Virus record (IMG/VR): IMGVR_UViG_3300036939_000023 | Coordinates: 1 to 64,000 of that record | Reading direction: 5' to 3' (one strand) | DNA from: a virus | DNA: 64,000 bases | Shown here: positions 4,882 to 21,207 of the stretch, one piece after another | Position numbering within the stretch: position 1 is the stretch's first letter | Layout: each line of letters starts with the position of its first letter | Notes under the pieces: model-generated | Told to the model about the DNA's origin: nothing | The model's input: only the letters and a program-made list of their open reading frames with translations | Database searches by the model: none | Translations under genes and position numbers: made by a program

Positions 4882-6048
4882 ATGGCATTTATTCAACAAT
4901 TCTTAAATGACAAAGTAGTAGCTAAAGCTGCTGACACAATGGTTAATGAAACATTACGTTACTTGTATGAACGTAGTGCGGTATTAGCTGAATGTGTACC
5001 TATTAAAGAAACTCAGAGTTTTGATTGGAAAGGTTTACTGTTTAAAGAAGAAGCTCCAGTAGCTACACTTGTTGCGGATGACCAAGAAATTCCTATTCGT
5101 AGTTTCGGTAAGTTTGAAGAAGTAATTGCTAGTGGATTCAACATTGCAGATTCATATATGTATGATGAAACTACAATGAAAGAAATGTATAAAGCTATGA
5201 CTGATGCTAAATTACAAGGCACTTCAGTTATGAGCTACCGAGATGAGAAAGGTAATACAACTAAACCTGGCACTAATGATGATATTGCTCAATTAATTTT
5301 TGGTAGTATTGCATCCTTAACACGAGGTATTGTAGATAAATTAGATGTATTAACTTGGGAAGCATTACAGACTGGTGCAGTAAGTACTACTAGTATTAAT
5401 ACTAATATTGATATTAAGAGTATTAATTACAAAGATCCTAACGCTGATTATAATCATTTTCCTAATGCATTAGTTGATACTGGTAATTCTGTATCTAAAC
5501 TAAATCGTTGGAGTGATTATGAAAATGCTGATGGTATTGCTAATCTTTATGATGCTATTGATACATATCAAGATACTAACGGTTTTATGCCTAAGTATAT
5601 TTGTATGTCTCGTAAATTATTCAATCATCTTAAGAGTCAAAAAAGTACTCAACGAGCTGCTGCTAATACTTTATCCAGCGGTATTGTAAGTGCTGAAAGA
5701 TTAATTGAAGTACTTAAGAACAACATGATTGATGCTGAAATTAAGATCATTGAAGATCGTTATCAAGTACGTGATGTTAAAGGTAGAACACAAAGAGTAC
5801 GTTTCTTAAATGAAGATACTATCGTGTTTATGTATCCTGGTATGGGTCAGAGATGGGTTGCACCTACTATTGATAGTGTTACTAATTTAGTTGAAGAAGG
5901 AAACACAGTAGTACGTCCTAAGCCAGGTCTTTTCATCAAAACTTATGAACGTCAAGTACAACCTAAACGTGATGTTACTTACGGCAAAATGACTGCTGCA
6001 CCTGTATTTCTTGAGCCTAGATTGTTCTATAGCTGGAAGGTTAATTAA
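4882..6048 (+). CDS. major capsid protein candidate
   Basis: 388 aa, follows protease/scaffold/decoration-like genes, AAGGAAA upstream. Call is by position and size, no diagnostic motif. Confidence 0.6.
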   Translation: MAFIQQFLNDKVVAKAADTMVNETLRYLYERSAVLAECVPIKETQSFDWKGLLFKEEAPVATLVADDQEIPIRSFGKFEEVIASGFNIADSYMYDETTMKEMYKAMTDAKLQGTSVMSYRDEKGNTTKPGTNDDIAQLIFGSIASLTRGIVDKLDVLTWEALQTGAVSTTSINTNIDIKSINYKDPNADYNHFPNALVDTGNSVSKLNRWSDYENADGIANLYDAIDTYQDTNGFMPKYICMSRKLFNHLKSQKSTQRAAANTLSSGIVSAERLIEVLKNNMIDAEIKIIEDRYQVRDVKGRTQRVRFLNEDTIVFMYPGMGQRWVAPTIDSVTNLVEEGNTVVRPKPGLFIKTYERQVQPKRDVTYGKMTAAPVFLEPRLFYSWKVN

Positions 6049-6614: not shown

Positions 6615-7019
6615 ATGTTAAACAACAATATTATCAAACAAGATAAGTTATTACTAGTTAGAGGTAATAGTCTTAATGCAGAATTTGATATTACACTAAC
6701 TACTAATGTAAATCCACTAGTAGAATTTGGTATAAGAGAAACTTTAACTAGTGAAGATTTAGTTTATGCAAGTACTGTTAATAACAAAATAGTATTGTTG
6801 GAAACACTTAATTATAGCAACCTGTTTAACAAGAAGTATAAATTAGTAATACCTTATTTAGATACTATTGACTTACCAGTAACAGATATAAATAATGACG
6901 GTAACTGTTGTAATGATAAGTACTTATTAGGTTATTTACAAATTACTTATGATACTACTAAAGAGTTATTATTAGAATTACAAGTATATGTAAAAGATAA
7001 TTACAATGTATTTACTTAG
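6615..7019 (+). CDS. hypothetical structural-module protein
   Basis: Track ORF, co-directional, 14-nt overlap with the next gene. Confidence 0.5.
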   Translation: MLNNNIIKQDKLLLVRGNSLNAEFDITLTTNVNPLVEFGIRETLTSEDLVYASTVNNKIVLLETLNYSNLFNKKYKLVIPYLDTIDLPVTDINNDGNCCNDKYLLGYLQITYDTTKELLLELQVYVKDNYNVFT

Positions 7020-7752
7020 TAGTTTTAGTAAAAGAAGTATTGGACAGAAGAAACGTAGAACTAAAGAATATGCATTAAACACTGTTGCAGGAGCTAGTGT
7101 AGGCGGTGCAATTGGTTCACTACTAGCTGCTAGAAACCCTTCTAACATACCTAAAAACATAGTTAGAGGATTAGTAGCCGGAAGTGCTGGTGGAGCTTAC
7201 AAGACTTACAGGACAAGGAAGAATAGAAGAAAAGAAAACAATCCATTAAAGAAATATATTAATAACAAATTATATTCAAATAACAATTTAGCAGAATTCA
7301 GATTATTAGACAACTTACCAGGAAGAAGTGATAAAGGTAAAAAACGTAAAGGTGTTAGTGGATTAATTCAGAATATTAAAGAAAATCCAGTAGAAGCATT
7401 AGCAATAACAACAGGTGGAATATTAGCTGCTAGATATGGAGCTGCTGGTATTAAAACTACACTAAGAGCTAGTAAGAAACTAAAATCAGATAAATATATC
7501 AACAAGGCTAAATCCTTAACTACTGAAGGAATTAATAAAGCTAAAAATAGTAAAGTTAGTGGTCAACAATTGAATACTAGAGAAACCTTAGGTAAAGCTA
7601 TTAATATTAGTGACATACCTAAATCTAAAGTTAAACAAAAGAAAGTAGTTGCATTAGCTAGTGCTTTCTTAAAAGGTAGTGGAAGTAAAGCTAGAAAAGA
7701 TATTCGTACAGTTAAAAAAACAATTAATTACTTAAAAACAGGAAAGAAATAA
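7006..7752 (+). CDS. MYLL-leader polybasic glycine-zipper protein (two-unit)
   Basis: MYLLSSFSKRS start, VAGASVGGAIGSLLAA, internal leader-like NNNLAEFRLLDNLPGRSDKGKKRKG, second Gly-rich segment. Confidence 0.65.
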   Translation: MYLLSSFSKRSIGQKKRRTKEYALNTVAGASVGGAIGSLLAARNPSNIPKNIVRGLVAGSAGGAYKTYRTRKNRRKENNPLKKYINNKLYSNNNLAEFRLLDNLPGRSDKGKKRKGVSGLIQNIKENPVEALAITTGGILAARYGAAGIKTTLRASKKLKSDKYINKAKSLTTEGINKAKNSKVSGQQLNTRETLGKAINISDIPKSKVKQKKVVALASAFLKGSGSKARKDIRTVKKTINYLKTGKK

Positions 7753-8030
7753 TGTATTTATTAAATCAATTCAAAGTAGGTATTAAAGGTTCAGCGGCTA
7801 TAATTGGTGATAGTATTACAGGTAAAAGTAAACGTAAAGACAAAGAAGAACGTAAAAGATTCAATAGAGGAGTACTAGGAGGAGCTATAGGTAGTGCTGC
7901 TGGAGGATTATTAGGAAATCTTAGAAGTAAGAAAATAGGCGTTGCAGGAGCTTTATTAGGTAGTAGTATAGGTGCTGCTGTTGGTATTAGGAAACCTAGG
8001 AAAGATAAAGGTAAGAAAAGATTCAAATAA
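7752..8030 (+). CDS. MYLL-leader glycine-zipper protein
   Basis: MYLLNQFKVG start via TAATG overlap. GGAIGSAAGGLLGNL..GVAGALLGSSIGAAVG resembles a two-TM glycine zipper. Ends RKDKGKKRFK. Confidence 0.65.
   Translation: MYLLNQFKVGIKGSAAIIGDSITGKSKRKDKEERKRFNRGVLGGAIGSAAGGLLGNLRSKKIGVAGALLGSSIGAAVGIRKPRKDKGKKRFK
8001..8021 (+). repeat. exact DNA repeat AAAGATAAAGGTAAGAAAAGA (encodes KDKGKKR)
   Basis: Identical 21-mer at 9907-9927. An 18-nt core, GATAAAGGTAAGAAAAGA, also occurs at 18529-18546. Confidence 0.8.
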
Positions 8031-8235
8031 GTTCAATACCTGTATTATTATTAACTAAATTCATTTGATTACTTATACTATCAACATATTTCAATAAATC
8101 TATCTCTAAGTTGTCAGTGTATCTAGGTATCTTAGGTAATTCTTCTTTAGTTAGTTTATTTCTAGTTACTGTGTTATTAGTTACTACATAAATACCGACT
8201 ATTTTATTATCTCTTGTATATTTAATATTAATCAT
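8023..8235 (-). CDS. hypothetical protein
   Basis: Track ORF, overlaps the upstream minus-strand gene by 8 nt. Confidence 0.5.
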   Translation of the reverse strand: MINIKYTRDNKIVGIYVVTNNTVTRNKLTKEELPKIPRYTDNLEIDLLKYVDSISNQMNLVNNNTGIELI

Positions 8236-9508
8236 AATCTTGTAAGTAACTGTTTAATTGTTGTAGTTGTTTATAGTTATACTTATAAACTAACTGTTTA
8301 CGTTTAGCATTTAACTTAGCTTTAGTAGCTTCAGCTTTAGGTGTATTAGTTCCCATAGCTTTATTTAAGTAATTATTAATACTACTACTAACTTTCTCTG
8401 GATCTGCATTGTCTTCTATATTTTTAAACATATTTTTCATTTCTTTTAAATTATTCTTCTGATCATTATCTAAATCTCTGTAACTATTTTTTATTGCACT
8501 TTTCAATGAACTAAAATCACTAACAAATTGCAAGCTTTCTCCATTATCAATTAAGCTAAATTTGTTCTTATTTTTGTCATACCAAATATTTTCATTATGC
8601 ATATCATAATTACTGAAACTTTTACCAAATGCATAAATTTTAGCTAAATCCTTATGTTTAAGTGCCACGTTTAATTTTTGTCGTTCGGTAAAATATAATC
8701 CAGTTCTTCTATCTTCTTTAGGATTAAATTTAAAACTTACATTAAAACTCTTATCTAATAAACCTTCTTCAACACTATCTTTTAAGCTTTTACCCGGTAA
8801 GAATTTATGTAAGGTATAAATTGAATTACTGTCGGTTAATACACTTTTAACTCCACTAGGTACTAATTTAGTTTCTTGTATATTTACTCCTAACTTACTA
8901 CCAAAGTCACTCATAACAGCTTCCATTACTGGAAAACCAAATTTTCTGTCATAGTCCATACCTAATTTAGTAGATATTTGTTCTGTTAAATACCAAGGTA
9001 TAGAACTTTTCATTACATATTTATTATTACCATCACTCACAATTCTAGTAGCATTAGCACTCTTAGTAACACTACCTGGTAATAATTTAATATCATCTAA
9101 GTTAGTTTTAATTTCTACACTGGATAAACTACTATCTAATTTACCTTTAATTGTTCTATAGAAGCCTTTAACACTTTGCTGCTTGCCACTTTTATTCCTA
9201 TCAAATCCTTTAACAAATATTTTCTTTAATACTGAAGATCCATTATCTACTTTAGCTTGTTGTTGTAATGCTCCTTCTAATGCTACTAATTTAGTTTTTA
9301 CTGTCTGTTTATCAACACTATCCTCAATAGTATTATTAACTGCTTTAATACTTTTAGTTAAATTTTTACTAATCTTACTATCTTTTAAGTTTATTGCATT
9401 TAGTACAGTCTTAATATCTTTCTTTTTACCTAATAATGCATTTTTAATTACTTTATTTCTTCTTTTTCTTTTATACCTGTCAATAAAGTTCTCTTTCTTA
9501 CCAAACAT
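8228..9508 (-). CDS. protein-kinase-like fold protein (APH/ePK-like catalytic motifs)
   Basis: KYVMK (beta3 Lys-like), NYDMHNENIWYDKNKNKFSLIDNGES (D-x4-N catalytic loop plus IDxG metal-binding motif). Polybasic N-terminus FIDRYKRKRRNK. Confidence 0.5.
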   Translation of the reverse strand: MFGKKENFIDRYKRKRRNKVIKNALLGKKKDIKTVLNAINLKDSKISKNLTKSIKAVNNTIEDSVDKQTVKTKLVALEGALQQQAKVDNGSSVLKKIFVKGFDRNKSGKQQSVKGFYRTIKGKLDSSLSSVEIKTNLDDIKLLPGSVTKSANATRIVSDGNNKYVMKSSIPWYLTEQISTKLGMDYDRKFGFPVMEAVMSDFGSKLGVNIQETKLVPSGVKSVLTDSNSIYTLHKFLPGKSLKDSVEEGLLDKSFNVSFKFNPKEDRRTGLYFTERQKLNVALKHKDLAKIYAFGKSFSNYDMHNENIWYDKNKNKFSLIDNGESLQFVSDFSSLKSAIKNSYRDLDNDQKNNLKEMKNMFKNIEDNADPEKVSSSINNYLNKAMGTNTPKAEATKAKLNAKRKQLVYKYNYKQLQQLNSYLQDYD

Positions 9509-9552
9509 AGTAATCTGTTATTATTTATATAAATTATAGTAAAGCATTTAAT

Positions 9553-10254
9553 ATGTACTTATTAACTACATTTAAACGTAAGAAAGGTGATAAAAATAAA
9601 CGAACTAGAAAAGACAAAGGACTAAAACGAACTACTAATAATAAAGCAGCTAAAACAGTTAGTACTAAAGTACATCACAATTATTTAAAAGCTAGAACAG
9701 TACGAAGTCTTACTGCTCCAATAGTAGATGCAGCTAGAGAAGTAAGACATTGGACAGCATTAGGACATGAAATGACTAAAACTAAGTCTACTAAGTCTAA
9801 AGGTAATGTAGGTAGTACAGTAAGAACAGCTAGAAATGCAGTAGGTTTAGTGAAAGATTTAGGGAGATTTAGTAATAATAAATTAATACAATTTAGAAGA
9901 AGTAGAAAAGATAAAGGTAAGAAAAGAGGTACTTATAATAAAGCATTAGGTGTGGCTAAAAAAGCAGGACAATTAGCTACTGGAGCTGCATTATTAGGTG
10001 GTGGATTATATGCAACTAAAAAGTTAGTTAATACTGGGTATTTACCTAAACTAATTGGTAAAGCTGATGATCCCTTAGTTAAAAGAAGTAGAGATGCACT
10101 AAAATCTAGTATGCATGAAGGAGCTACTAAAACTACTGCTGCAATTATTCCAGCTACTACTATTGGTGCAACTACAGTAGGTGCTGATTATCTAATAGAT
10201 AGAAAGAATGATATGCCACTAACTCGAAAAACTAGAAAATTATTAAGAGGTTAA
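9553..10254 (+). CDS. MYLL-leader polybasic glycine-zipper protein (two-unit)
   Basis: MYLLTTFKRKKGDKNKRTRKDKGLKR, internal NNKLIQFRRSRKDKGKKRG, then GAALLGGGLYA and TTIGATTVGA. Confidence 0.65.
   Translation: MYLLTTFKRKKGDKNKRTRKDKGLKRTTNNKAAKTVSTKVHHNYLKARTVRSLTAPIVDAAREVRHWTALGHEMTKTKSTKSKGNVGSTVRTARNAVGLVKDLGRFSNNKLIQFRRSRKDKGKKRGTYNKALGVAKKAGQLATGAALLGGGLYATKKLVNTGYLPKLIGKADDPLVKRSRDALKSSMHEGATKTTAAIIPATTIGATTVGADYLIDRKNDMPLTRKTRKLLRG
9907..9930 (+). repeat. exact DNA repeat (KDKGKKRG coding)
   Basis: 9907-9927 is identical to 8001-8021. 9910-9930 is identical to 18529-18549. Confidence 0.8.
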
Positions 10255-10256
10255 TT

Positions 10257-10583
10257 ATGTATTTACTAAATGCTGAGTTTAAAAAAAAGAAAGGTGATAA
10301 AAACAAGAAACAACGTAAAGATAAAGGAGTTAAAAGGAAACCTGGATTATTAAGTTTAAAACGTAAAGCTAGTTATGCAGGTCATTTAGCTAAAGGAATT
10401 GCCGGAGGAGCATTAGCTGGTGGTACATTAGCTGGGTTAGCTGCTAGCCCTATTCCTGCTTTAATACCTGCTGCTGCTAGTTTAGGGGCTGTTGATGGAG
10501 CTATTAAAGGTGCTGTGGGTAGTAGTGCAGTTTATGGTCTTAAAAAAGGATTACAAGAACGTCGTAAAAATAAGAAAAAATAG
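10257..10583 (+). CDS. MYLL-leader glycine-zipper protein
   Basis: MYLLNAEFKKKKGDKNKKQRKDKGVKR, then GIAGGALAGGTLAGLAASPIPALIPAAASLGAVDGAIKGAVG. Confidence 0.65.
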   Translation: MYLLNAEFKKKKGDKNKKQRKDKGVKRKPGLLSLKRKASYAGHLAKGIAGGALAGGTLAGLAASPIPALIPAAASLGAVDGAIKGAVGSSAVYGLKKGLQERRKNKKK

Positions 10584-10585
10584 AT

Positions 10586-11416
10586 ATGTATTTACTACAA
10601 AAACCTAATTTAATTAATTTTGGTATAGTTAAAAGTCATCTTAGAAAAAGTAAGAAAGGTACTTATTTAGTAAAACAATTTGATAGAAAAAATAGAGATA
10701 AAAAATCGTTTATTAAAGGAGCTGCTGTAGGTAGTATTAGTACAATACTTATTGCTGGAGCAGCTAGTACTTTACATCCTACTGTTAGAAAAAGTATATT
10801 TAAAAATATAGATTTTAGAACTCCTAGAATTTTATTAAAGAAAAAAATTAAGGCAAACGATTTAGATTTTATTGAGAAAAAAGGGGCTAAAACTTTAAAA
10901 ACTCTTCTAAATAATTTAACTCCTAAAACTACTAAATCTTTTAAGGTATCTACTAATAAGTTGGAAATACTCAAAGATTTAGAAGAAATTAAAAAAACAA
11001 ATATATCCTTATTAGATAATTTAAATATTCCTGCTAGAAAACAAAGAAAAATAGAATTACAAAATAGACTTATTTCTGATGCTTTTGACTTTAGTAAATT
11101 AGAAGAAAATACTTATCCGGATTTAATGTTCAGAAGTTACAAAAATAAGAAAACAGGTAAACTTAGTGCTTTTACTTTATTAAAACCTAATAAAGAATAT
11201 AATGCATTAAACTTAGGTACTATATTAACTCCAGAAGGTAGTGATGTTAAAGGAGTTAAAGAAGTATTAGAGCATACTAGAGAAGTTAGTAGAAAGCTAG
11301 GTTACAAAGGTAGAATTGTAGGTGATCCAGATGAAAATGCTATCCCACTTTATAAACGTTATGGAGCTAAACAAATTGAAGGTACTAGATATTGGTTATT
11401 TGAAGGAGATACCTAA
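10586..11416 (+). CDS. MYLL-leader protein with C-terminal GNAT-acetyltransferase-like domain
   Basis: MYLLQKPNLINFG leader and AAVGSISTILIAGAAS. C-terminus KGVKEVLEHTREVSRKLGYKGRIVGDPDENAIPLYKRYGAKQ resembles GNAT motif A plus the xxLYxKxGF block. Confidence 0.5.
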   Translation: MYLLQKPNLINFGIVKSHLRKSKKGTYLVKQFDRKNRDKKSFIKGAAVGSISTILIAGAASTLHPTVRKSIFKNIDFRTPRILLKKKIKANDLDFIEKKGAKTLKTLLNNLTPKTTKSFKVSTNKLEILKDLEEIKKTNISLLDNLNIPARKQRKIELQNRLISDAFDFSKLEENTYPDLMFRSYKNKKTGKLSAFTLLKPNKEYNALNLGTILTPEGSDVKGVKEVLEHTREVSRKLGYKGRIVGDPDENAIPLYKRYGAKQIEGTRYWLFEGDT

Positions 11417-12036
11417 TGTATCAGATTAAGTATACTAGCATTGATTCAATTAGAAGACGATTAAGAAGCCGACTTAAAGTAGACTTTTTAGGTATACCTT
11501 CGCCGTATACTAATCAAGAAATAGCTACTAAAAGTATCGATGATGAAACAATCTTAGATGTAATAGAAGATAATGAAGCTTACTTGGATTACTTCTTAAG
11601 CTTAGTTTATGTACTGCCACTACTTCATAAACACAGGATATTACAAACTTGCGTTGATAGCTTAGTAATTGCTGATTTAATGTCAATACATTTTACTAAT
11701 TTTAGTGAAAATACTGATGGTAGTAAATATGGTGTTGGCAATAGAAATCAAGCAATACAGATAATTAAACAGTTAACATTTGGATTAAATATTTCACTAG
11801 ATTTACCTAATGAAAGTAGTACTAATCCTTATGTTTACAATCAAGCAATTATATTACCTAACGAAACATTAGTTACTAGTAGAAACAATGTAATTAATGA
11901 AAAACAAATTAGTGTTAATAGTTATAACACATTAGCTGGTAGAGAAGGAATTAACTTTGGTGTTGATGATTATACTACTAGAGATAAGTATGCACCTAGA
12001 GCTAGAGATTTAGAAAGAAGACATTACTTTTACTAA
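11416..12036 (+). CDS. head-tail adaptor candidate (Mu gp36/DUF1320-like pattern)
   Basis: DDETILDVIEDNEAYLDYFLSLVYVLPL...VIADL follows the DUF1320-type pattern. TAATG overlap with the upstream gene. Confidence 0.35.
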   Translation: MYQIKYTSIDSIRRRLRSRLKVDFLGIPSPYTNQEIATKSIDDETILDVIEDNEAYLDYFLSLVYVLPLLHKHRILQTCVDSLVIADLMSIHFTNFSENTDGSKYGVGNRNQAIQIIKQLTFGLNISLDLPNESSTNPYVYNQAIILPNETLVTSRNNVINEKQISVNSYNTLAGREGINFGVDDYTTRDKYAPRARDLERRHYFY

Positions 12037-12086
12037 AATTATATTAACTACTGTGTTAGACTATTTGAAGTTTTGGGTATAAATTA

Positions 12087-12560
12087 ATGGAAAGAAAAGC
12101 ATTAAAAGATAAGTATAACGAGTACTACAAAGAATTTAAAAAGAAAGAGTTATATCAATTAAGTCAATTTGATAAGTTATTTATTTTAGTATTAGAAATA
12201 GCTGAAGATATTAATAAGTTAACACCAACAGCTACTAATGCTTCTAACACTAATGCATTAACTAATAAGACATTAGAAATTAAATTTAATAATAGTAATG
12301 TTAGTGATGTATTTACATTACCTAGTACTAATGCATTATTAATTACAGCTAAAAGTGATAAGAACTTAACTGTTAATTTACAGTTAGCTTATGTTGATAA
12401 TAAGTGGGTAGATAGTAATTGGATAGTAGATATTCCAGTTAACACTAATTTAGTAGTTACTGATTTTAGTGATTACAGTGGTTTAATTAACAGGAAAGAT
12501 AGCTGTAGATTAGTATCTAATGAAACTATTACAGCTACCTACTTAATGTACTACGTCTAA
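12087..12560 (+). CDS. hypothetical structural-module protein
   Basis: Track ORF; last + strand gene before the terminator. Confidence 0.55.
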   Translation: MERKALKDKYNEYYKEFKKKELYQLSQFDKLFILVLEIAEDINKLTPTATNASNTNALTNKTLEIKFNNSNVSDVFTLPSTNALLITAKSDKNLTVNLQLAYVDNKWVDSNWIVDIPVNTNLVVTDFSDYSGLINRKDSCRLVSNETITATYLMYYV

Positions 12561-12589
12561 TTAAGTTAATAATTATACAACAGAAAATT

Positions 12590-12620
12590 AAGGAGTAGTA
12601 ATGTTCTGCTCCTTTTATAT
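12590..12620. terminator. rho-independent terminator between convergent genes
   Basis: AAGGAGTAG (12590-98) pairs with CTGCTCCTT (12606-14), with one G-T wobble and a 7-nt loop, followed by TTTTATATT. Confidence 0.6.
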
Positions 12621-12661
12621 TGAGTTGTAAGACGTTGTAGTTGCTGAATGTACTATGTGAC

Positions 12662-12690
12662 CTGAAGATAGTTTCTAGCTGTTATAGGTC
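12662..12690. promoter_or_regulatory. conserved motif copy A (CTGAAG..TTCTAGCTGTTATAGGTC)
   Basis: Near-identical block at 62652-62690. Both abut the 3' end of a minus-strand gene. GACCT/AGGTC arms at 12659-63 and 12686-90. Confidence 0.35.
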
Positions 12691-12946
12691 ATTTTAAGGA
12701 GAATGTAGATAAATATTTAATCACAAGTTCTACATCAATTCCTCTAATAGTTAATTGCCTAACTACTTCTGCACTAAATACAAATACACTACCACTAAAA
12801 TCAATGTAATGTAAATATGATTTTATTTGCTCTATTTGTGATAAATGTAGATATCTATCTTGAGCTGTTAATAGGTGTTTTTGATACTTACAAATTTCAT
12901 CTATGTAAAACTTAGTATTATTCATTTTATTTATTCCAAGACTCAA
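12689..12946 (-). CDS. hypothetical protein
   Basis: Track ORF, overlaps the upstream minus-strand gene. Confidence 0.55.
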   Translation of the reverse strand: MSLGINKMNNTKFYIDEICKYQKHLLTAQDRYLHLSQIEQIKSYLHYIDFSGSVFVFSAEVVRQLTIRGIDVELVIKYLSTFSLK

Positions 12947-13427
12947 TCATTTCTTTAGTAATACTTCTACCATCTAAAGTTTTACCAATAGCTAATGCAG
13001 CTCCTTCAACTTTTTTTAATTCAGGTTTTTTAGGTTTAGGTAAAGTATTAATATAATTAATAATTTCTAACTCTATTAGATCTTGTAATCCATCAACTAC
13101 ATTTTTACTGCTATGTCCATCATAATCATCACTTTTATCTTTAAACTTTATATCTACTAAACTACAATAATCAACTAACTCAATAGGCAAATGATAACTA
13201 ATCTGTTTAATATCAGGATGATTTAATACTAATAAGAACCAACCATCCCAGGTACTCCCATCACTATTTGTATAAGTGTAATAGCAGTAATCCTTGTACT
13301 TAATACATAATGCTAAATACAATAAACATCTATGATCATATAGTTCTTCAAATGTATGATACCCATCACTAATTTGTCCTTTATCTTCTAACTTATTAAT
13401 CTCAATATTTAACTCAGTAATATTCAT
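12927..13427 (-). CDS. conserved phage protein (WDGH-type pattern), function unknown
   Basis: DGYHTFEELYDHR...STWDGWFLL...ISYHLP, a pattern I recall from widespread phage proteins of unknown function. Confidence 0.55.
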   Translation of the reverse strand: MNITELNIEINKLEDKGQISDGYHTFEELYDHRCLLYLALCIKYKDYCYYTYTNSDGSTWDGWFLLVLNHPDIKQISYHLPIELVDYCSLVDIKFKDKSDDYDGHSSKNVVDGLQDLIELEIINYINTLPKPKKPELKKVEGAALAIGKTLDGRSITKEMIESWNK

Positions 13428-13453
13428 GTTCTTAAATGTTTAAGATAATTATA

Positions 13454-13642
13454 TTAAGCTAGTACTGTAATAGTGTTAGTTTCATTATTTACTATTACTT
13501 GCTTATCTAAGAGTTCTTGTATTTTACTAAAATCATTATAATCATTTAAATTAATGTATTTAATAAAAAATCTATTAGTAATAATGTACTTAGACTTAAG
13601 GGTGTTAATGTCCTCTTTGTTAGCTACTAATTTATATTTCAT
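13454..13642 (-). CDS. hypothetical protein
   Basis: Track ORF. Confidence 0.5.
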   Translation of the reverse strand: MKYKLVANKEDINTLKSKYIITNRFFIKYINLNDYNDFSKIQELLDKQVIVNNETNTITVLA

Positions 13643-13672
13643 AATAGTAATAATTATAGTTTAGTTAATTTA

Positions 13673-14077
13673 ATGAGTATTAAAGAAATTTATAAAAATT
13701 TATTAGTTAATCGTTATAACAATAAAAAGTATTACAGTAATGCAATTGAATTTGATTATAGTAATAATGTTGTTAGAATAGCTAGTCCTAACTGTTCTAC
13801 TAGATTGATATTAAAACCAACCTTTAATGAAGGTAATTTAGTGGAGTTAACTTATGCACTTAGTGGAGATATGTTTGCATTTGTAGTTACTGAATTAATT
13901 ATAGATTATTTACTAACTCATAACAAAGAAGATAGTAAAGCCTACTTAAATAAGTTAGTTAACAAGTTAAATACAGAAACAGAAGTAGATGCAATATTAA
14001 CTAGTAACTATCAGAGTAGTAGTATTAATAAGATACTAGGTTACTTCAATACTTTTGTTAATAGTTACTGGCTTTAA
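13673..14077 (+). CDS. hypothetical protein (lone + gene in minus island)
   Basis: Track ORF, divergent from 13454-13642. Confidence 0.5.
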   Translation: MSIKEIYKNLLVNRYNNKKYYSNAIEFDYSNNVVRIASPNCSTRLILKPTFNEGNLVELTYALSGDMFAFVVTELIIDYLLTHNKEDSKAYLNKLVNKLNTETEVDAILTSNYQSSSINKILGYFNTFVNSYWL

Positions 14078-14258
14078 ATGTAATTGTATTGTCATCAGTA
14101 TTTAATACAATAGATTTACATATTAAATGTTTTTCTGCATAATCTCTAAATGCTCTTTCTGCTATTTGTACTTCAATCTCTTCTTCAGTTAAATTATGAT
14201 TCTTTAGTGCTACTTCTTCTAATTGTTGTAGCTGTTGTTTAAATTGTTTAAGGTTCAT
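14058..14258 (-). CDS. small MNL-start protein (paralogue set)
   Basis: Track ORF 14058-14279. The internal ATG at 14258 gives MNLKQFKQQ and an ATGAACCTTAA overlap with the upstream stop. Confidence 0.5.
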   Translation of the reverse strand: MNLKQFKQQLQQLEEVALKNHNLTEEEIEVQIAERAFRDYAEKHLICKSIVLNTDDNTITFKASNY

Positions 14259-14424
14259 TAGTATCCTCTTTAATATCAATTATAAATTTAACTTCAAAGT
14301 CCTTGCATCCACCATCACCTAAGTTACCTCCACCTATATCTAACCAGCTAATTTCAATTTCTTTACCTTTGTAATATTTATCTAAGTAAGCTTCTATTTG
14401 TTTTACAACTTCTTCAAGATTCAT
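14248..14424 (-). CDS. small MNL-start protein, 58 aa
   Basis: Hand-translated: MNLEEVVKQIEAYLDKYYKG... Below the track size cut-off; fills a gap in the array. Confidence 0.5.
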   Translation of the reverse strand: MNLEEVVKQIEAYLDKYYKGKEIEISWLDIGGGNLGDGGCKDFEVKFIIDIKEDTNEP

Positions 14425-14428
14425 GTTA

Positions 14429-14590
14429 TTAAATTAATCTAATTAAGTTATCTTCTACTTGAATATCTGTAACTATTGGATCGCAGTACTCACTAAAGTA
14501 ACTAACTTTTAATTCATTAACTTCAATACCTTGTTGTATTAAGTCTCTTTCAATTATTAATAACTTAGTAATTAGTTCTGGTAGATTCAT
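14429..14590 (-). CDS. small MNL-start protein, 53 aa, paralogue of 14601-14789
   Basis: Hand-translated: MNLPELITKLLIIERDLIQQGIEVNELKV..CDPI, compared with MNLNEFVKQIIAIEQDLIQQGLNTNKIEV..GDPI. Confidence 0.55.
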   Translation of the reverse strand: MNLPELITKLLIIERDLIQQGIEVNELKVSYFSEYCDPIVTDIQVEDNLIRLI

Positions 14591-14600
14591 ATACTTCTAA

Positions 14601-14789
14601 TTAATTAATAACAATATAACGAGTTGTCATAGTATCTTTTACTAAATCATCCTCTAAATATATTTCTTCTATACCTATAGGATCGCCGTAAATACCTTTA
14701 CATACTTCTATCTTATTAGTGTTAAGTCCTTGCTGTATTAAATCTTGTTCTATTGCTATTATCTGTTTGACAAATTCATTTAAGTTCAT
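14601..14789 (-). CDS. small MNL-start protein
   Basis: Track ORF; paralogue of 14429-14590. Confidence 0.6.
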   Translation of the reverse strand: MNLNEFVKQIIAIEQDLIQQGLNTNKIEVCKGIYGDPIGIEEIYLEDDLVKDTMTTRYIVIN

Positions 14790-14966
14790 TTAATTATCCT
14801 TATCTAACTCATCAGTAATAGTTGTAATAACTTTATTTACATTAATCTTATGTAACTTCTTAGCTGCAATATAACGATTAACTATATCTGTTATTTCTTC
14901 TTGTGTAGTAGCTCCTAATGAAACACAAATAAATCTAATCTGTGTTAGATCTTGTTGAGTTAACAT
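14790..14966 (-). CDS. hypothetical small protein, 58 aa
   Basis: Hand-translated: MLTQQDLTQIRFICVSLGATTQEE... Its TAA is adjacent to the ATG of the next gene. Confidence 0.45.
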   Translation of the reverse strand: MLTQQDLTQIRFICVSLGATTQEEITDIVNRYIAAKKLHKINVNKVITTITDELDKDN

Positions 14967-14987
14967 AATACCTTATTTACTAAAGCA

Positions 14988-15131
14988 TTATTCTAACCTA
15001 TAAGTTACTTCAATATAAGTGTCTTTACCAACTGTTTTAATTATTGTGTAACTTTTATCTTTTAGTACTAATCTATCATTCTTAACGTAATTATCTATAA
15101 ACTCATAAGGTATTAATATAACTGTATTCAT
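14988..15131 (-). CDS. hypothetical small protein, 47 aa
   Basis: Hand-translated: MNTVILIPYEFIDNYVKNDRLV... Confidence 0.4.
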   Translation of the reverse strand: MNTVILIPYEFIDNYVKNDRLVLKDKSYTIIKTVGKDTYIEVTYRLE

Positions 15132-15149
15132 GATAAGTATAATTATTAC

Positions 15150-15386
15150 TTAGTTAGTATATTCTTTAATTAGTAAATTCTTAAAGTCTACTACTAATTT
15201 AATATCGTTAAGTACAGTACTAATAGTTTCCATATCACCTAACTCAGTAATGTTAGTGTAATACTCAAATGTCTCTAAATAGTTAGTGGTAGTAACTTCA
15301 GTATCATCAACTTTAATTAAAGGATAACTACTACCTAGTAATAATCTAATCTGTTGTTTGGTTAAATTTAATTTAAATTTAGACAT
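15150..15386 (-). CDS. hypothetical protein
   Basis: Track ORF. Confidence 0.55.
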   Translation of the reverse strand: MSKFKLNLTKQQIRLLLGSSYPLIKVDDTEVTTTNYLETFEYYTNITELGDMETISTVLNDIKLVVDFKNLLIKEYTN

Positions 15387-15408
15387 AGTAATAATTTAGT
15401 AAATTCTA

Positions 15409-15582
15409 TTAATTATAACCTAATCTTAGTAGTCTATTTATATTTAGTTCTATTTGTTGTAGTTGTACTAATGCTGTTCTATCATTAGTACTTTGTCTTA
15501 ATACCTTTAACTGTTGTAATGCTAGATCATATTGTTTATCGGTAACTAACTGTTGTAGTTGTAGTAGTTGTTGTTTATACAT
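15409..15582 (-). CDS. hypothetical Gln/Leu-rich coiled-coil protein, 57 aa
   Basis: Hand-translated: MYKQQLLQLQQLVTDKQYDLALQQLK... Confidence 0.4.
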   Translation of the reverse strand: MYKQQLLQLQQLVTDKQYDLALQQLKVLRQSTNDRTALVQLQQIELNINRLLRLGYN

Positions 15583-15608
15583 GATGCACCTAATGATATA
15601 GATACATT

Positions 15609-15890
15609 TTAGCGGTTGTTTAAGTAGTTGTTCATGTTAGCAACTGATTCGTAATAACTTACAAATTTAATAACATAATCAATATCTTCTATCACAGAAA
15701 CTTTATTTGTATATTGTTTTAATTTATTTAGTATATTTAATGCAGTTAAATAATTATACTTATTAATAGCTTCAATAACTAAAGTAGTTTGTTGATTTAC
15801 ATAATTATCTTCATATTCATTGATTCTATTAATAATAGGAAAAATTACATGATATATATTATTGCTTAAAATCTGCTGTTGTTTAATCAT
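15609..15890 (-). CDS. hypothetical protein
   Basis: Track ORF, 8-nt overlap with the upstream gene. Confidence 0.55.
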   Translation of the reverse strand: MIKQQQILSNNIYHVIFPIINRINEYEDNYVNQQTTLVIEAINKYNYLTALNILNKLKQYTNKVSVIEDIDYVIKFVSYYESVANMNNYLNNR

Positions 15891-16086
15891 ATTGAGCTAC
15901 CTTACATGCACTAATACCTTCAATTAACTTTCTAACTACTTCAGCTTTAGTTAGTTTATAAGTTAAACAGTGTTGCTGTAATATGTCGTATTGCTCTTCT
16001 GTAATTTCAACATGTAACTTTTTAGTAAAATCTTTCTTCTTAGTATTCATAATACTCTCAATGTTTATATATTTATATGTTAACAT
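15883..16086 (-). CDS. ribbon-helix-helix-like DNA-binding protein candidate
   Basis: KKLHVEITEEQYDILQQHCLTYKLTKAEVVRKLIEG fits a beta-strand plus two-helix RHH layout. First gene of the minus island, divergent from 16126. Confidence 0.35.
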   Translation of the reverse strand: MLTYKYINIESIMNTKKKDFTKKLHVEITEEQYDILQQHCLTYKLTKAEVVRKLIEGISACKVAQYD

Positions 16087-16125
16087 AAAAGAGTCAACAC
16101 AAGTAAATGCTAACTCCAGAGATAT

Positions 16126-16884
16126 ATGAGTAATTATAACAAATTAAAAGAAGAACATGAAATATTTGATTTCCTTATTAAATCTAAGTATGCTAAAGAT
16201 TTAAGTTATGACTATGCGGATAATAGATGTTTATACTTAAACCAAGACATTGATATTCAAGTATTTAGAACAGAACTACAATACAAAGCTGATACTGTAT
16301 TTCTTAATGGTGAAAACTTTAATTATGCACTACAACGAGTATGTAAGCATTTAACACCTAAAGAAGATAATGTATTAGATAGTTATACATTAAGTGTGTT
16401 ACAAATCCTTCAGAGTAATAAATTAAATAATAAAGAAGAAATACAAATTAAAGAAATACTAGAACAATTAAACATATCTAAAATACTTTATAAATCTGAA
16501 GAACAAAAGGTAGCTAAATCACTTAAGCAACTAGGTTATGTGTCTAAGTTACTTAAGAATGAAACTGGTAAATACAGAGCATGGATCAAGGTGGAACAAG
16601 GTAGAACAACCCCCTTGATCGACCTAGAAGCCTTACTACAAGAGGAGAGAACAAGGGTAACAAGGTTAAACCTACTTTTAGATGAACATACTAAGTTAGC
16701 TAATAAACAGAAAGAAGAATTAGAACTTAGTAAACAAGAAAATACTAAATTGTTAAATACTAATTTAGAACTAGCTAATAAGATTAAAGAATTAGAAGCT
16801 AAATTAACTGAACATAATAAAGTAGAAGATAGATTTAGCACACCTAACAGATTTACTCGTACTCCATTAGATGATTTGGACTAA
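16126..16884 (+). CDS. hypothetical protein with C-terminal coiled coil
   Basis: Track ORF. Contains a GC-rich island with an inverted repeat (16584-16620). Confidence 0.55.
   Translation: MSNYNKLKEEHEIFDFLIKSKYAKDLSYDYADNRCLYLNQDIDIQVFRTELQYKADTVFLNGENFNYALQRVCKHLTPKEDNVLDSYTLSVLQILQSNKLNNKEEIQIKEILEQLNISKILYKSEEQKVAKSLKQLGYVSKLLKNETGKYRAWIKVEQGRTTPLIDLEALLQEERTRVTRLNLLLDEHTKLANKQKEELELSKQENTKLLNTNLELANKIKELEAKLTEHNKVEDRFSTPNRFTRTPLDDLD
16584..16620. repeat. 8-bp inverted repeat GATCAAGG / CCTTGATC in a local GC-rich island
   Basis: Arms at 16584-91 and 16613-20. Flanked by four (A/T)CAAGG(T/G) copies between 16586 and 16666. Confidence 0.6.
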
Positions 16885-16998
16885 AAGGATTAATTCTAAG
16901 GTGACCTTTTTAATAATCTAATGTAAAAAATTGAATAAAAAGTCCACCTAGTTTCGATTAGTTGCATATAATTTAATTAAATAACAATAAATATAACT

Positions 16999-17202
16999 AT
17001 GTATCTACTACTCGTAAAAACTCGTTTTTTAAATCAATTTGGTACTTATAGTAACAAGTCTAACAAATACGAAGGTAAGTTCTTCAAGAAAATACTAACC
17101 AAGGGTATAAGAGATAAGTCAGGTAAACAAGTAACAGATAAGAAACAGAAATTAGCAATAGCAATTAGTGAACTAAAAAGAGGAACTAGTAGACTTAAGT
17201 GA
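16999..17202 (+). CDS. short MYLL-leader basic protein
   Basis: MYLLLVKTRFLNQFGTYSNKSNKYEGKFFKK. No Gly-zipper. Followed by the HNH gene. Confidence 0.55.
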   Translation: MYLLLVKTRFLNQFGTYSNKSNKYEGKFFKKILTKGIRDKSGKQVTDKKQKLAIAISELKRGTSRLK

Positions 17203-17594
17203 CTAAGAACATTAGACTAACTGAATATCGTAATTACTTTAATAACTTTAAGAAATCACTACAATACAAAGAACTGCAAAGTTACTTAATTACTAAACAA
17301 TTAAGCTTATGTATTAACTGCAAAAAAGTTATTGCGTTAAACAAATACACACATTGTTATCATCTGTTAAGTCTTAATGATTTAGTGTTAATTGATAGAA
17401 AAGATTTAGTAATTAACTATAACAATTTTTACTTAAGTTGTAATAGTTGTAATTTAAAACAAAGTAAGAATAGTAATTTTAGTTTACTTAGTGAAGATGT
17501 ATTTAAGTTAATTAGTTTAGTAGAGTTAGCTAAAATAGTATACTTAAGAAATTATAAGTTAAATATAAAACATGTACTTATTAGTAGTAAGTAA
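17199..17594 (+). CDS. HNH endonuclease-like protein
   Basis: CINCKK...HCYHLLSLNDL...NNFYLSCNSCNLKQSK (CxxC..H-x-H..N..CxxCN). GTG start overlapping the upstream stop. Confidence 0.55.
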   Translation: MTKNIRLTEYRNYFNNFKKSLQYKELQSYLITKQLSLCINCKKVIALNKYTHCYHLLSLNDLVLIDRKDLVINYNNFYLSCNSCNLKQSKNSNFSLLSEDVFKLISLVELAKIVYLRNYKLNIKHVLISSK

Positions 17595-18561
17595 TAAACT
17601 AAATAACTTTGCTAAGAAAAAGAAAGATAAATCTAACAAAGTAAAAGGAACTGCTCAATTAGTAGCTGGAGGATTAGTAGGACAGCAAGCCGTTAGAAGT
17701 GGTGTACCAAGAGCATTAGGAGTTAGATTAGAAAGTCATAGTACTAGTAGAAAGAATGCTAGAGAAATATTAAAAAATGGAGGAATATTAGATCCTAATA
17801 AAAGTGGTACTGGAGCAATTAGAGCATTAGAAAACAATCAAGGACTTGGAGATGTTACAGATATTAATAAAGCTAAAGGTAAAGTTTATATTACAGGATT
17901 ACATAAAGATGCTAAAGATAGAGTAATAAAGTCATCCAATATATTTACTCCAAGTACTACGTTAAAAGCGGATGAAGGTAATGCCTTGTTAAATGTAATA
18001 GCTAGAAAAAATCAAAGAAATGCTTACCGTGCTTCTAGTGGTATTAATTGGGATAAAGTAAATTCTGCTGGAGAAAAAGCTTATAACGAAATTATGGATA
18101 AAAATACCAAAGCTAAGTTAGGTAAAAAATTTGTAAAGGAAAGAGCAGAATCAGCAAGATTATTAGCTGGAGGACAAGAACGTATAAAACAAACACTTAA
18201 AAATACTGTCTTACCTACTGGTAAAAGCTTATATGTAGGAGGTAGTGATGAATATTTTAATAAAAACTTCTTACCTGATTTTGATGATCCTAAAGCTATG
18301 TATTCTACTAATAAAGTCAAAGTTAGTGGCAATAGATTATCTGCAACATTAGAAGCTTTAAAACGAGAAGGTAATGGTAATAGATTAAAAGGAGCTAGTA
18401 AGTTAATAAAAGCTAATAAAGGAAGAGTAGGAGCAGGATTAGCAATAGCTGGATTAGGTGGATTAGCAGCTAGTAAATTAGTAACTTCTGGTATTAATAA
18501 TATTAGAGGTAAAAGAGATGAAAGAGATGATAAAGGTAAGAAAAGAGGTAAATATAAATAA
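17572..18561 (+). CDS. MYLL-leader protein with central enzyme-like domain (possible ADP-ribosyltransferase fold)
   Basis: MYLLVVSNKLNNFAKKKKDKSNKVKG leader. LESHSTSRKNAREILKNGGI, KGKVYITG and GGSDEYF loosely match H-Y-E ART blocks. C-terminus has GAGLAIAGLGGLAAS and DDKGKKRGKYK. Confidence 0.55.
   Translation: MYLLVVSNKLNNFAKKKKDKSNKVKGTAQLVAGGLVGQQAVRSGVPRALGVRLESHSTSRKNAREILKNGGILDPNKSGTGAIRALENNQGLGDVTDINKAKGKVYITGLHKDAKDRVIKSSNIFTPSTTLKADEGNALLNVIARKNQRNAYRASSGINWDKVNSAGEKAYNEIMDKNTKAKLGKKFVKERAESARLLAGGQERIKQTLKNTVLPTGKSLYVGGSDEYFNKNFLPDFDDPKAMYSTNKVKVSGNRLSATLEALKREGNGNRLKGASKLIKANKGRVGAGLAIAGLGGLAASKLVTSGINNIRGKRDERDDKGKKRGKYK
18529..18549 (+). repeat. exact DNA repeat GATAAAGGTAAGAAAAGAGGT
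   Basis: Identical to 9910-9930. Confidence 0.8.
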
Positions 18562-18674
18562 TGTACTTACTATATTTAGATAATATAAAACATACTAATA
18601 TAGTATTAGTAAAATTTAATAATAATAATAATATAAACAATGAAATTAACAACTGGCAAAAAGAAACAAGGTAA
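18561..18674 (+). CDS. orphan MYLL-leader mini-ORF (37 aa)
   Basis: ATG overlaps the upstream TAA (TAATG). MYLLYLDNIKHTNIVLVKFNNNNNINNEINNWQKETR. Overlaps the 18640 gene, which is in the +1 frame. Confidence 0.35.
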   Translation: MYLLYLDNIKHTNIVLVKFNNNNNINNEINNWQKETR

Positions 18675-19062
18675 TGCAGTTAGTAAAGGTGCAAAGATTG
18701 GTAGTGCGATTGGGGCTTTAAGTGGCTTGGCTGCAAAAACTCCAGTCGGTGGTAGATTAGGAGGAACAATGGCTAGTGCAGTAGGAGGAGCAGTATTAGG
18801 TGCAGGAATTGGTGCTGGAGTTAAAGGTGTTAAAGCAGCTAAAAATAAATTAACTAATAAAAAAGCTAAATTTAATAATACAGACTTAACTGAATTTACC
18901 GATTCAATTATTGTTGCTGGGTTTCCTACTATTACAGTTAAAGAAGAAGCTAACAAATCAGTATTAGAACTAGCTAATGAGAAACTAAAAAATAAAGATA
19001 AGCTTCCTGACGATTGTAGCCCTGTCTCAGCTAATATTTACAACACCTACTATTCCATCTAA
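18640..19062 (+). CDS. polybasic glycine-zipper protein (leader variant MKLTTGKKKQGN)
   Basis: GSAIGALSGLAA..GGRLGGTMASAVGGAVLGAGIGAGVKG. Confidence 0.6.
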   Translation: MKLTTGKKKQGNAVSKGAKIGSAIGALSGLAAKTPVGGRLGGTMASAVGGAVLGAGIGAGVKGVKAAKNKLTNKKAKFNNTDLTEFTDSIIVAGFPTITVKEEANKSVLELANEKLKNKDKLPDDCSPVSANIYNTYYSI

Positions 19063-20946: not shown

Positions 20947-21207
20947 ATGAACTTAAAAGAAACTGCTGGTATTTATCAAATATTAAATAAACACAATTTA
21001 AAGTGTTATGTAGGTTCAACTAGAAGAAGATTTTCTCAAAGATTTTATGATCATAAAAGAGATTTAAAGAACAATAAACATCACAGCAAACATTTACAAG
21101 CAGCTTGGAATAAATATGGTGAAGAAGTATTTGAATTTACTGTACTTGAAATAATAGATAAAAGCTTAGATAAGATCTATTTTTTACAAAGAGAACAATA
21201 TATTTAG
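20947..21207 (+). CDS. GIY-YIG nuclease domain only (truncated homing-endonuclease-like gene)
   Basis: GIYQILNKHNLKCYVGST..RF..H...L......H.LQAAWNKYGEEVFEFTVLE...REQYI, then stop. No DNA-binding C-terminal domain. Confidence 0.65.
   Translation: MNLKETAGIYQILNKHNLKCYVGSTRRRFSQRFYDHKRDLKNNKHHSKHLQAAWNKYGEEVFEFTVLEIIDKSLDKIYFLQREQYI

Follow-up and report, generated by a model that had tools for sequence, protein, structure and literature searches.

Short N-terminal leaders that address proteins to the phage head are established for T4 and, more loosely, for the giant phages and for Staphylococcus phage 80alpha. In T4 the capsid-targeting sequence (CTS) is common to diverse basic internal head proteins (IPI-III and Alt) and is removed by gp21; the prohead site has the form L/I-x-Glu. 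The capsid and scaffold leaders of 80alpha are trimmed by the host protease Prp, and the corresponding site in the L27 extension reads MLxx(D/N)LQ(F/L)F↓A(S/H)KK (arrows mark a cleaved or proposed bond throughout). Giant-phage head and ejection proteins (SPN3US gp245; phiKZ and 201phi2-1 relatives) are in many cases processed by one self-cutting prohead protease at a simple motif, which ends in Glu; some of their propeptides have 20–24 residues and most have 111–254 aa (logo example 'ARE-12'). Here we describe a leader found in a 64,000-nucleotide stretch of viral DNA (positions 1 to 64,000 of IMG/VR record IMGVR_UViG_3300036939_000023; the whole stretch is referred to below as the window). 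Eight plus-strand open reading frames (ORFs), starting at 7006, 7752, 9553, 10257, 10586, 16999, 17572 and 18561, open with the tetrapeptide M-Y-L-L; all eight had been listed in an initial annotation of this DNA and all eight were verified. The leader, MYLL...F, is interpreted as a head-assembly recognition and processing tag on a modular family of basic virion proteins, cut after Phe by the protease of the phage, a proposal that we regard as evenly balanced between right and wrong.

As in T4, one short leader stands on otherwise unrelated basic proteins of the head module, with a protease and a scaffold nearby, and this is seen both in the eight MYLL ORFs and in six other lineages. The locus differs from T4 in several respects. 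The leader has no sequence similarity to the T4 leader and the residue before the proposed cut (P1) is Phe (95 of 113 instances); the neighbouring protease candidate, ORF 909, goes with phrog_976 and the 'Mu-like prophage I' protein, and no homology to T4 gp21 was found in any search run; the motif is also an internal linker between tandem units, about one-fifth of the orthologues are leaderless and the phage is a cyanobacterial siphovirus. The analogy with the T4 CTS is therefore reasonable as a way of working, given the neighbours, the shared leader and the virion data from the cultured phage Pam2, but it does not extend to membership of the same family (P1 Phe and no leader homology). With 80alpha the locus has in common a short leader ending in Phe, then Ala and a K-K-G-like stretch, leaderless homologues of the form M-A-x-K-K and the involvement of several head proteins; it differs in having its own phage protease and a large paralogous substrate family rather than capsid and scaffold only. 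The giant phages are myoviruses with long propeptides, whereas here leaders of 6–24 aa precede modular AT-hook-like and glycine-zipper units and P1 is Phe. Judged by sequence comparison, the tag would belong to none of these three families.

The DNA pattern ATGTAYYTAYTW is present in eight copies in the window, every one at a MYLL start; the mean number expected by chance is 1.24, and none of 100 dinucleotide-preserving shuffles reached eight. All of the codon differences among these starts are synonymous (TAT/TAC; TTA/CTA; TTA/CTA/CTT), and the ORFs diverge completely from codon 5 on. Since only synonymous differences occur, conservation is at the peptide level and not at the DNA level, and the idea of a leader common to otherwise divergent head-module proteins is upheld as a peptide-level signal. 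Four of the eight starts (7752, 10257, 10586 and 18561) touch or overlap the preceding stop codon and are therefore not transcription starts or promoter elements. A Phe follows at residue 7, 7, 7, 8, 12, 14, 13 and 19 of the eight ORFs, respectively, in agreement with the range of 7–19 given originally.

MYLL itself had been taken for the leader, which was not recognized from any described family; the tetrapeptide is not in itself the signal, and the leader is not confined to this phage. A profile of leader plus core was used in an exhaustive HMMER search, without a word index, of 1.84 billion representative proteins, which returned 102 clusters at E ≤ 0.001 (a word-indexed search with the motif profile gave short fragments only). 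The leader is thus widespread rather than unique, and the motif family is not covered by any Pfam or PHROG model. Among 113 instances, the A-R-x-K-G-S/A-K-D-K core is preceded by Phe 95 times, by the initiator Met eight times (M-A-R-K-L-G-S-K-D-K), by Lys five times and by Tyr twice; Lys replaces Phe before S-R-T-K-G-A-K-D-K in a minor variant (P0185 and P0189). Half of the 68 N-terminal leaders have exactly seven residues, M-[Y/F]-[L/Y]-L-[A/N/S/T]-[D/T/N/E]-F, and their commonest starts are MYLL (12), MYYL (nine) and MFYL (five). The 33 instances at internal unit junctions have L/V/I at P4, A/V/S at P3, N/E/T at P2 and F at P1, with an aromatic residue near P10. The recognition motif consists of an aromatic residue at P6, Leu at P4, Ala/Ser at P3, Asn/Glu/Asp/Thr at P2 and an invariant Phe at P1, the minimal form being M-[Y/F]-[L/Y]-L-x-x-F. 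From these alignments MYLL is read as Met plus positions P6–P4 of a longer, general motif with Phe as its fixed point.

Comparison loci were taken from further lineages (L002, L003 and L006–L009) and from two close relatives (L010 and L011). Paralogues within each genome have a common, lineage-specific leader: MYLL in the window, L010 and L011; M-K-T-L-F-I-S-D-I...F and MYYLSD..NF in L006/L007; MIGLIEF in L008; and x-I-T-F-I-G or KFLGQIEF in L002/L003. Such sharing suggests, as far as sequences can tell, co-evolution with one partner. There are 8–12 family genes per genome, and the family is modular. In the relatives a unit is made up of a leader, the AT-hook-like motif, one or two glycine zippers, sometimes a globular domain and a basic tail, and the units occur as single genes or as tandem fusions. 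Leaderless forms begin M-A-R-K, and removal of their Met would leave the mature end that cleavage of the Phe–Ala bond would give.

In most relatives Phe is followed by A-R-K-K-G-S-K-D-K-K-K-R-K, and the general tract is an AT-hook-like A-R-x-K-G-[S/A]-K-D-K-x-K-R-K. The window sequence KKGDKNK aligns to the core of this tract and RKDKGxKR comes next in the same basic stretch; both KKGDKNK and DKGKKR look like local versions of it. The Lys-rich DKGKKR motif singled out originally was recovered as DKGxKR in six copies in the six-frame translation, all within family ORFs, against 0.025 expected in shuffles; the Lys-rich tract is thus real, but it matches the conserved motif of the relatives and is not a generic polybasic run. 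The hook-like tracts of the relatives read A-R-P-K/R-G-S-K-D-K or A-R-T-K-G-A-K-D-K, and R-P-K-G-S-K-D-K resembles an HMGA-type hook flank. The R-G-R-P core of the true AT-hook is absent and KKGDKNK and RKDKGxKR in the window are without G-R-P, so the relation is one of resemblance only. The sequence GGRPKGSKDKxKRK also occurs in two unrelated proteins, P0083 and P0091. The commonest predicted mature N-terminus in P0112–P0208, A-R-T-K-G-A-K-D-K, resembles the L27 N-terminus A-(S/H)-K-K-G and shares its first four residues, A-R-T-K, with eukaryotic histone H3. This double likeness is probably a coincidence of basic tails, and a functional link between an exposed A-R-K-K-G N-terminus and that of mature L27 would be speculative, being a matter of likeness only.

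The net charge is +11 to +45 and Lys+Arg make up 15–27% in every family member but the 37-aa remnant 18561. One or two Gly/Ala-rich, moderately hydrophobic segments are found in all members except this remnant and 16999 (67 aa). Their [G/A/S]xxx[G/A/S] runs are like those of the Pfam glycine-zipper families (PF05433, PF13441 and PF13488) and the pattern is visibly present, so that the description of these segments as Gly/Ala zippers stands as a pattern; the Pfam scores all lie under the cut-offs (17.5 bits at best versus 24.2, the others 13–15 versus 25–29). None of the family members in the window scored above threshold against Pfam or PHROG. In ORFs 7006, 7752, 10586 and 16999 the MYLL leader stands before sequence that is not AT-hook-like, and the leader is therefore separable from the basic motif.

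ORF 17572 (17572–18561, plus strand) encodes a MYLL member of 329 aa. Its leader of 13 aa (...KLNNF↓AKKKKDK) stands before an alpha/beta core that is conserved; a Gly-rich helix comes next and the C-terminal tail reads RDDKGKKRGKYK. Metagenomic homologues of the protein number 71, none of them with a Pfam domain, and 67 have an RSGxPR core anchor. Of these 67, 48 have an N-terminal leader of 6–24 aa that always ends in Phe 25–35 residues before the core; about 14 are leaderless and begin at the basic tract (MNKKRG..., MAKKKK...), and in five fused homologues the Phe junction is internal (one of these, P0032, has perhaps a mis-called start). The leader is variable, absent or internal, yet the distance from Phe to the core is fixed. 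The AlphaFold 2 (AF2) model of the protein is confident [mean predicted local distance difference test (pLDDT) 86] and shows an alpha/beta core between long helices; none of the folds in the PDB matched it better than E 0.17, and on the strength of the model the core may be an undescribed fold. A T4 Alt-like ADP-ribosyltransferase, suggested by eye from 'RLESHSTS...YITG...DEYF', was dropped for want of a PDB fold match at a better E value than this. The homologues P0001–P0071 have at least three interchangeable basic C-terminal tails, RDDKGKKRGKYK, KNKSGKWSNVKSF(I/V)RDK and a by-eye NUMOD3-like HKRNISKALKGKKR (P0054 and P0060), which suggests exchange of DNA-binding tails. A scan of the 17572 family against 185,579 genomes for prophages or hosts gave no match.

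Virion data are available for two distant relatives. Pam2 gp15 and gp17, which bear the motif and glycine zippers, are marked as detected in virions by mass spectrometry, and the protease gp14 and the scaffold-like gp18 are not so marked (Table S2 of PMC9382816). Pam2 gp15 begins MSLKAEF↓AAKQ... and gp17 (640 aa) contains MIRKSANF, EIRKSANF, QQAEF, GKSANF and KIRKSASF internally. In phage PA-SR01, which is 95% identical to Pam2 in nucleotide sequence over 57% of the genome, the region of gp17 is split into ORFs starting MRKSANF and MKHFANF. Genes are thus split or fused exactly at the motif, which is kept on the downstream product, as a processing and addressing signal predicts. The literature yielded no virion N-terminal data for PA-SR01 (SDS–PAGE only) and no structural paper on Pam2. 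The initial reading of the leader as a virion tag is partly supported, to the extent of the peptide signal, the position in the head module and the presence of gp15 and gp17 in Pam2 virions.

ORF 909 (909–2135, plus strand) encodes what is, by homology, a head-maturation protease domain (residues ∼10–160), after which come a helical region of scaffold-like character and a tail rich in Gly and Lys. The protein is 26% identical to PA-SR01 ORF24 (E 1e-7), which was matched by its authors via HHpred to the 'Mu-like prophage I protein' (PF10123), and four of five aligned homologues of ORF 909 match phrog_976 (head maturation protease; best E 2e-6). Residues H65 and S132 and five Phe residues (F6, F159, F168, F287 and F406) are invariant in 16 homologues, F168 standing immediately ahead of the scaffold-like domain. 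The N-terminal domain has a pLDDT of 65–87 in the AF2 model. The assignment as a protease is indirect and is suggested by transitive homology, by the conserved H65/S132 pair and by gene order. The Phe sites are KITTF↓S at the N-terminus; SALF↓N and ISNF↓N-M-DTTAVTLEEAL right after the catalytic domain; LAITTF↓DEMDQYISEY↓GLGS before the Gly/Lys tail; and KLSKF↓IK, with F406 three residues from the C-terminus. ORF 2874 (2874–3983, plus strand) encodes an acidic scaffold-like protein with conserved LAEF↓A, LTEF↓K and VAAF↓K, an invariant Phe in ...PLF↓EQ and ANF↓S near the C-terminus; A279, F281 and F323 are invariant in an alignment with five homologues, and the Pam2 homologue, gp18, is absent from the proteins detected in virions, as a scaffold would be. 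These x-x-Phe sites at domain borders fit autoprocessing and scaffold removal. The major capsid protein (4882–6048, plus strand) is lambda gpE-like (Phage_cap_E, one Pfam match among the window proteins); its N-terminus, MAFIQQF, resembles the leader, a likeness of uncertain significance, and most relatives likewise have an aromatic residue at position 7. The order protease, two family genes, scaffold, decoration-like gene and capsid protein is conserved. The presence of a protease-like gene (909) and an acidic scaffold-like gene (2874) beside the family, pointed out in the initial annotation, was confirmed, for 909 through its phrog_976 homologues.

On these grounds the following mechanism is proposed. 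Inside the procapsid the ORF 909 protease, of the kind termed Mu gpI-like in PA-SR01, would recognize the P-side motif and cut after Phe, removing the leader of 6–24 residues and separating fused units. The cut would expose an Ala- or Lys-initiated basic N-terminus able to bind the AT-rich packaged DNA (28% G+C), and both the protease and the acidic scaffold would be processed at Phe sites of this kind. The leader would probably also be a handle that brings the proteins into the procapsid, because split genes keep it. The glycine-zipper segments may then mediate oligomerization or membrane insertion after ejection.

Several points weigh against this mechanism. ORF 909 drew no direct match of its own from Pfam or PHROG, hhalign of the protease alignment against Mu gpI returned nothing in the protease domain and the AF2 model of ORF 909 found no informative match in the PDB; a search of BFVD gave two unnamed viral proteins at E 3e-8 and 1e-4, with 'prohead protease' at E 0.1 only. 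We know of no prohead protease that cuts after Phe. An L-x-x-F motif carries little information, and the sites in the protease, scaffold and capsid proteins could be structural Phe residues. The fifth or so of the orthologues that are leaderless indicate that the leader is not indispensable. The Pam2 mass-spectrometry table records presence or absence only, and virion detection concerns the Pam2 relatives, the members in the window being known from their genes alone.

A more specific version of the proposal, to which we would give only tentative credence, is that [Y/F]-x-L-[A/S]-[N/E]-F↓A has two uses in large cyanosiphoviruses, as an address tag and as the site cut by a head-maturation protease of a hitherto uncharacterized specificity with Phe at P1. 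If so, a tag of seven residues, M-Y-L-L-x-x-F, would suffice for any cargo to be loaded into the capsid, and the tandem-unit proteins would be true polyproteins that are cut in the head into AT-hook-plus-glycine-zipper peptides, which would coat the DNA and later form or assist an entry channel.

The alternative that survives best, although we consider it unlikely, is that the motif is recognized but remains uncut, either as a docking peptide, a short strand with Phe at its end, for a common procapsid partner (such as the scaffold, portal or inner capsid surface) or as a single functional unit with the AT-hook-like motif, in which Phe would be a hydrophobic wedge next to a minor-groove hook. 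With a docking peptide on every unit, split and fused genes would both be functional. Retention of the motif on the downstream products of split genes, for which a pure cleavage linker would have no need, agrees with docking, as do the lineage-specific leaders, which are what a binding interface would have, and the tight coupling of Phe to A-R-x-K-G-S/A-K-D-K in most of the 113 instances, the leaderless forms placing a hydrophobic Met at the position of Phe. This Met, however, would normally be lost from M-A-R-K with Ala next to it, leaving no hydrophobic residue there in forms that are nevertheless widespread; the leader also precedes the non-AT-hook sequences of ORFs 7006, 7752, 10586 and 16999, the protease and scaffold have Phe sites of a similar kind, and a length that varies between 6 and 24 residues is more in keeping with a propeptide to be discarded than with an interface of fixed form.

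It is somewhat less probable still that the proteins are not head cargo at all and that the leader is a membrane-insertion or sorting signal, the products being membrane proteins of the infected cell (for lysis, superinfection exclusion or envelope remodelling) or parts of the tail lumen or neck. Glycine zippers flanked by polybasic stretches are a typical feature of small membrane proteins, connector genes lie among the MYLL genes in the region from capsid to tail (the product of 11416–12036 has a weak, below-threshold match to Mu Gp36, a head–tail adaptor), and the Pam2 mass spectrometry shows presence in the virion and not location. The layout of the leader is, however, the reverse of a Sec signal (hydrophobic first and basic after), with 6–13 residues and no lipobox; the protease and scaffold genes always have two members between them; sets of 8–12 paralogues, some of 330–640 aa with globular domains, are unlike lysis cassettes; and detection in virions speaks against a purely intracellular role.

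Removal of the leader by a host protease, as by Prp in 80alpha, seems very improbable. The phage sequence ...L-A-N-F↓A-R-K-K-G does resemble ...L-Q-F-F↓A-S-K-K-G of L27 (P1 is Phe and P1' is Ala, with basic residues and Gly after them), P4 Leu is common and leaderless M-A-R-K parallels the short L27 forms M-A-H-K-K, but the conserved L-Q of the Prp site is missing. Unlike 80alpha, the phage brings a head-maturation protease of its own, and no Prp-family match was found among the 96 window proteins scanned. A host with long L27 and Prp is not indicated: the window carries NblA, the cultured relatives infect Pseudanabaena and the phyla with long L27 given in a review do not include cyanobacteria. 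Last, a DNA- or translation-level origin of the shared start (a promoter, leaderless-mRNA start, recombination linker, AT-rich initiation enhancer or trace of recent duplication) can be put aside as next to impossible, since, for all that the 12-nt pattern is AT-rich and lies exactly at start codons, several of them without a clear Shine–Dalgarno sequence upstream, the differences are synonymous only, divergence is complete after codon 4, four starts abut a stop codon and further copies of the motif are found within proteins and, with other codons and leaders and the same Phe, in relatives.

The family members are distributed over the head module as follows, all on the plus strand. A further gene, very basic and of at least 292 aa, runs off the left edge of the window (3–881, an open stretch of frame 3) and has no Pfam family; it adjoins the protease gene upstream, where the relatives have leader-bearing family members (those in L006/L007 begin MKTLFISDI...F↓SRPKGSKDK or F↓AREIKVK). 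Two members, 2174 and 2644, always lie between the protease and scaffold genes. ORF 2174 (2174–2644; net charge +25) begins with a leader of 19 aa; the motif is the canonical one, ...QELDSF↓ARKAGSKDKQKRKSRG, and a Gly-rich segment comes after it. Its orthologues hold the same position in L006 (3861) and L009 (15661), and tblastn against phage records gave no match. The small ORF 2644 (2644–2877) has a shortened leader, MQLL↓TKPRKQK, and two glycine-zipper segments, and its orthologues bear full leaders, MLLSEATF↓A (L006), MLLSEF↓T (L007) and MQLLSDYQLADF↓ARPRGSKDK (L009). By such comparison 2174, 2644 and 18640, at first listed as degenerate relatives, are true members of the family.

The MYLL genes past the capsid gene are interleaved with connector genes ahead of the tail module. 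ORF 7006 (7006–7752) is a two-unit member with MYLLSSF↓SKRS and a glycine zipper, then an internal NNNLAEF↓RLL...RSDKGKKRKG and a second Gly-rich segment; the best glycine-zipper score cited above, 17.5 bits against a cut-off of 24.2, is its weak, below-threshold match to Glycine zipper 2TM. ORF 7752 (7752–8030; 92 aa) has MYLLNQF↓K, two glycine zippers and a C-terminal RKDKGKKRFK. ORF 9553 (9553–10254) again has two units, MYLLTTF↓KRKKGDKNKRTRKDKGLKR and an internal NKLIQF↓RRSRKDKGKKRG with a Gly-rich segment, and ORF 10257 (10257–10583; 108 aa) consists of MYLLNAEF↓KKKKGDKNKKQRKDKGVKR and a long glycine zipper. ORF 10586 (10586–11416; 276 aa) opens with a leader of 12 aa (...NLINF↓G) and a basic tract, which are followed by a single hydrophobic segment and, at the C-terminus, by a globular domain. 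Searches of Pfam, PHROG and PDB sequences gave no match, and a GNAT-like C-terminus considered for it was dropped for lack of support from these three sources. ORF 16999 (16999–17202; 67 aa) consists of a leader of 14 aa (...FLNQF↓G) and a basic domain of small size, and gave no Pfam match; by inspection only, it resembles L008 16388–16876 (a weak DUF6496 match, then NLLEF↓ARTRGSRD).

ORF 18561 (18561–18674) retains the MYLL leader without cargo in 37 aa. The position-matched genes of the closest relatives encode 110 aa in L010 (MYPLTKS...) and 103 aa in L011 (MYLLTNFFLGIRKTRKDKGVKR, MYLLTNF...), and 18561, counted at first among the MYLL genes of the family, is by this comparison probably a truncated remnant of one. 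ORF 18640 (18640–19062) lacks MYLL; it starts MKLTTGKKKQGN and has glycine zippers and an internal NNTDLTEF↓T site, its orthologues begin MKLTTGKKQK or MNPLTVGKKKK and it has weak PHROG matches to internal virion proteins. A frameshift fusing 18561 and 18640 was rejected, as these are two separate genes in the relatives and 18640 has its own start.

The window codes for NblA, a Mu-type portal protein, the lambda-E-type capsid protein and a 2794-aa probable tape-measure protein. It has no close DNA relative among 50,697 phage records; its relationships are seen in the capsid protein, which is 31% identical to that of the Pseudanabaena phages PA-SR01 and Pam2. An identical copy of the 17572 protein is present on a 148.6 kb contig. 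The phage is a large (∼148 kb) cyanobacterial siphovirus related to PA-SR01 and Pam2, assigned to the cyanophages because it carries the phycobilisome-degradation gene nblA, a cyanophage hallmark (48615–48800, minus strand; PF04485, E 9e-10). This gene points to a phycobilisome-bearing cyanobacterial host, the phage G+C content of 28% notwithstanding. The portal gene (41532–42821; PF06074, E 1e-11) lies ∼35 kb from the capsid gene, past the tail genes, and in Pam2 likewise the portal is gp50 and the capsid protein gp20. The 2794-aa ORF (22439–30823) was taken as the tape-measure protein from its size and position and implies a very long tail; its counterparts are annotated 1918-aa proteins at the matching place in PA-SR01 and Pam2 and a 3143-aa PhageMin_Tail protein in L008.

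Other genes in and around the cluster were also inspected. A Peptidase_C39_2 domain occurs within the head module of relatives, in the midst of leader-bearing genes (L002 3984–4760, E 2e-13; L003 4699–5463; L010 1435–2001); a C39-type cysteine peptidase was rejected as the processing enzyme, being absent from the window (tblastn) and not a conserved partner. A small ClpP-family gene stands on the opposite strand beside the 17572 orthologue in L006 (9374–9874, minus) and L007 (11085–11588, minus) and was rejected as a conserved partner, there being no ClpP match in the window. A weak HNH-endonuclease-like gene (17199–17594; phrog_5956, E 4e-4) overlaps the start of 17572; a gene like it lies directly upstream of the orthologue in three relatives, L002, L003 and L010, whereas L006 and L007 have one at another place in the locus. 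The head–neck module and the MYLL cluster are split in two by about 12 small ORFs (12689–16086, minus strand), among which are a WDGH-domain protein (12927–13427) and, at 14248–14789, three adjacent paralogue-like ORFs (MNLEEVVKQI, MNLPELITKL and MNLNEFVKQI). Antisense between MYLL genes lies a 426-aa ORF (8228–9508, minus strand) with a weak T3SS_HrpK1 match only, the C-terminal half of which is kinase-like by eye (...DMHNENIWYD...LIDNGES...). An 86-aa ORF among the tail genes (20947–21207) has a by-eye GIY-YIG-like N-terminus (GIYQI...YVGST) and is possibly a truncated homing endonuclease; the window scan contained one GIY-YIG match, given without coordinates.

What would set the system apart is a very short and readily recognized tag in large cyanobacterial siphoviruses, with a different type of head-maturation protease and an unusual Phe at P1. 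Cultured phages of the clade exist in Pam2 and PA-SR01, so that the question is directly testable. If the proposal is confirmed, a new protease specificity would be defined and the free splitting and fusing of these gene families would be explained; the leader would provide a compact packaging tag for cyanophage engineering, and the internal or ejected proteins of uncultured cyanophages would become predictable from sequence alone.

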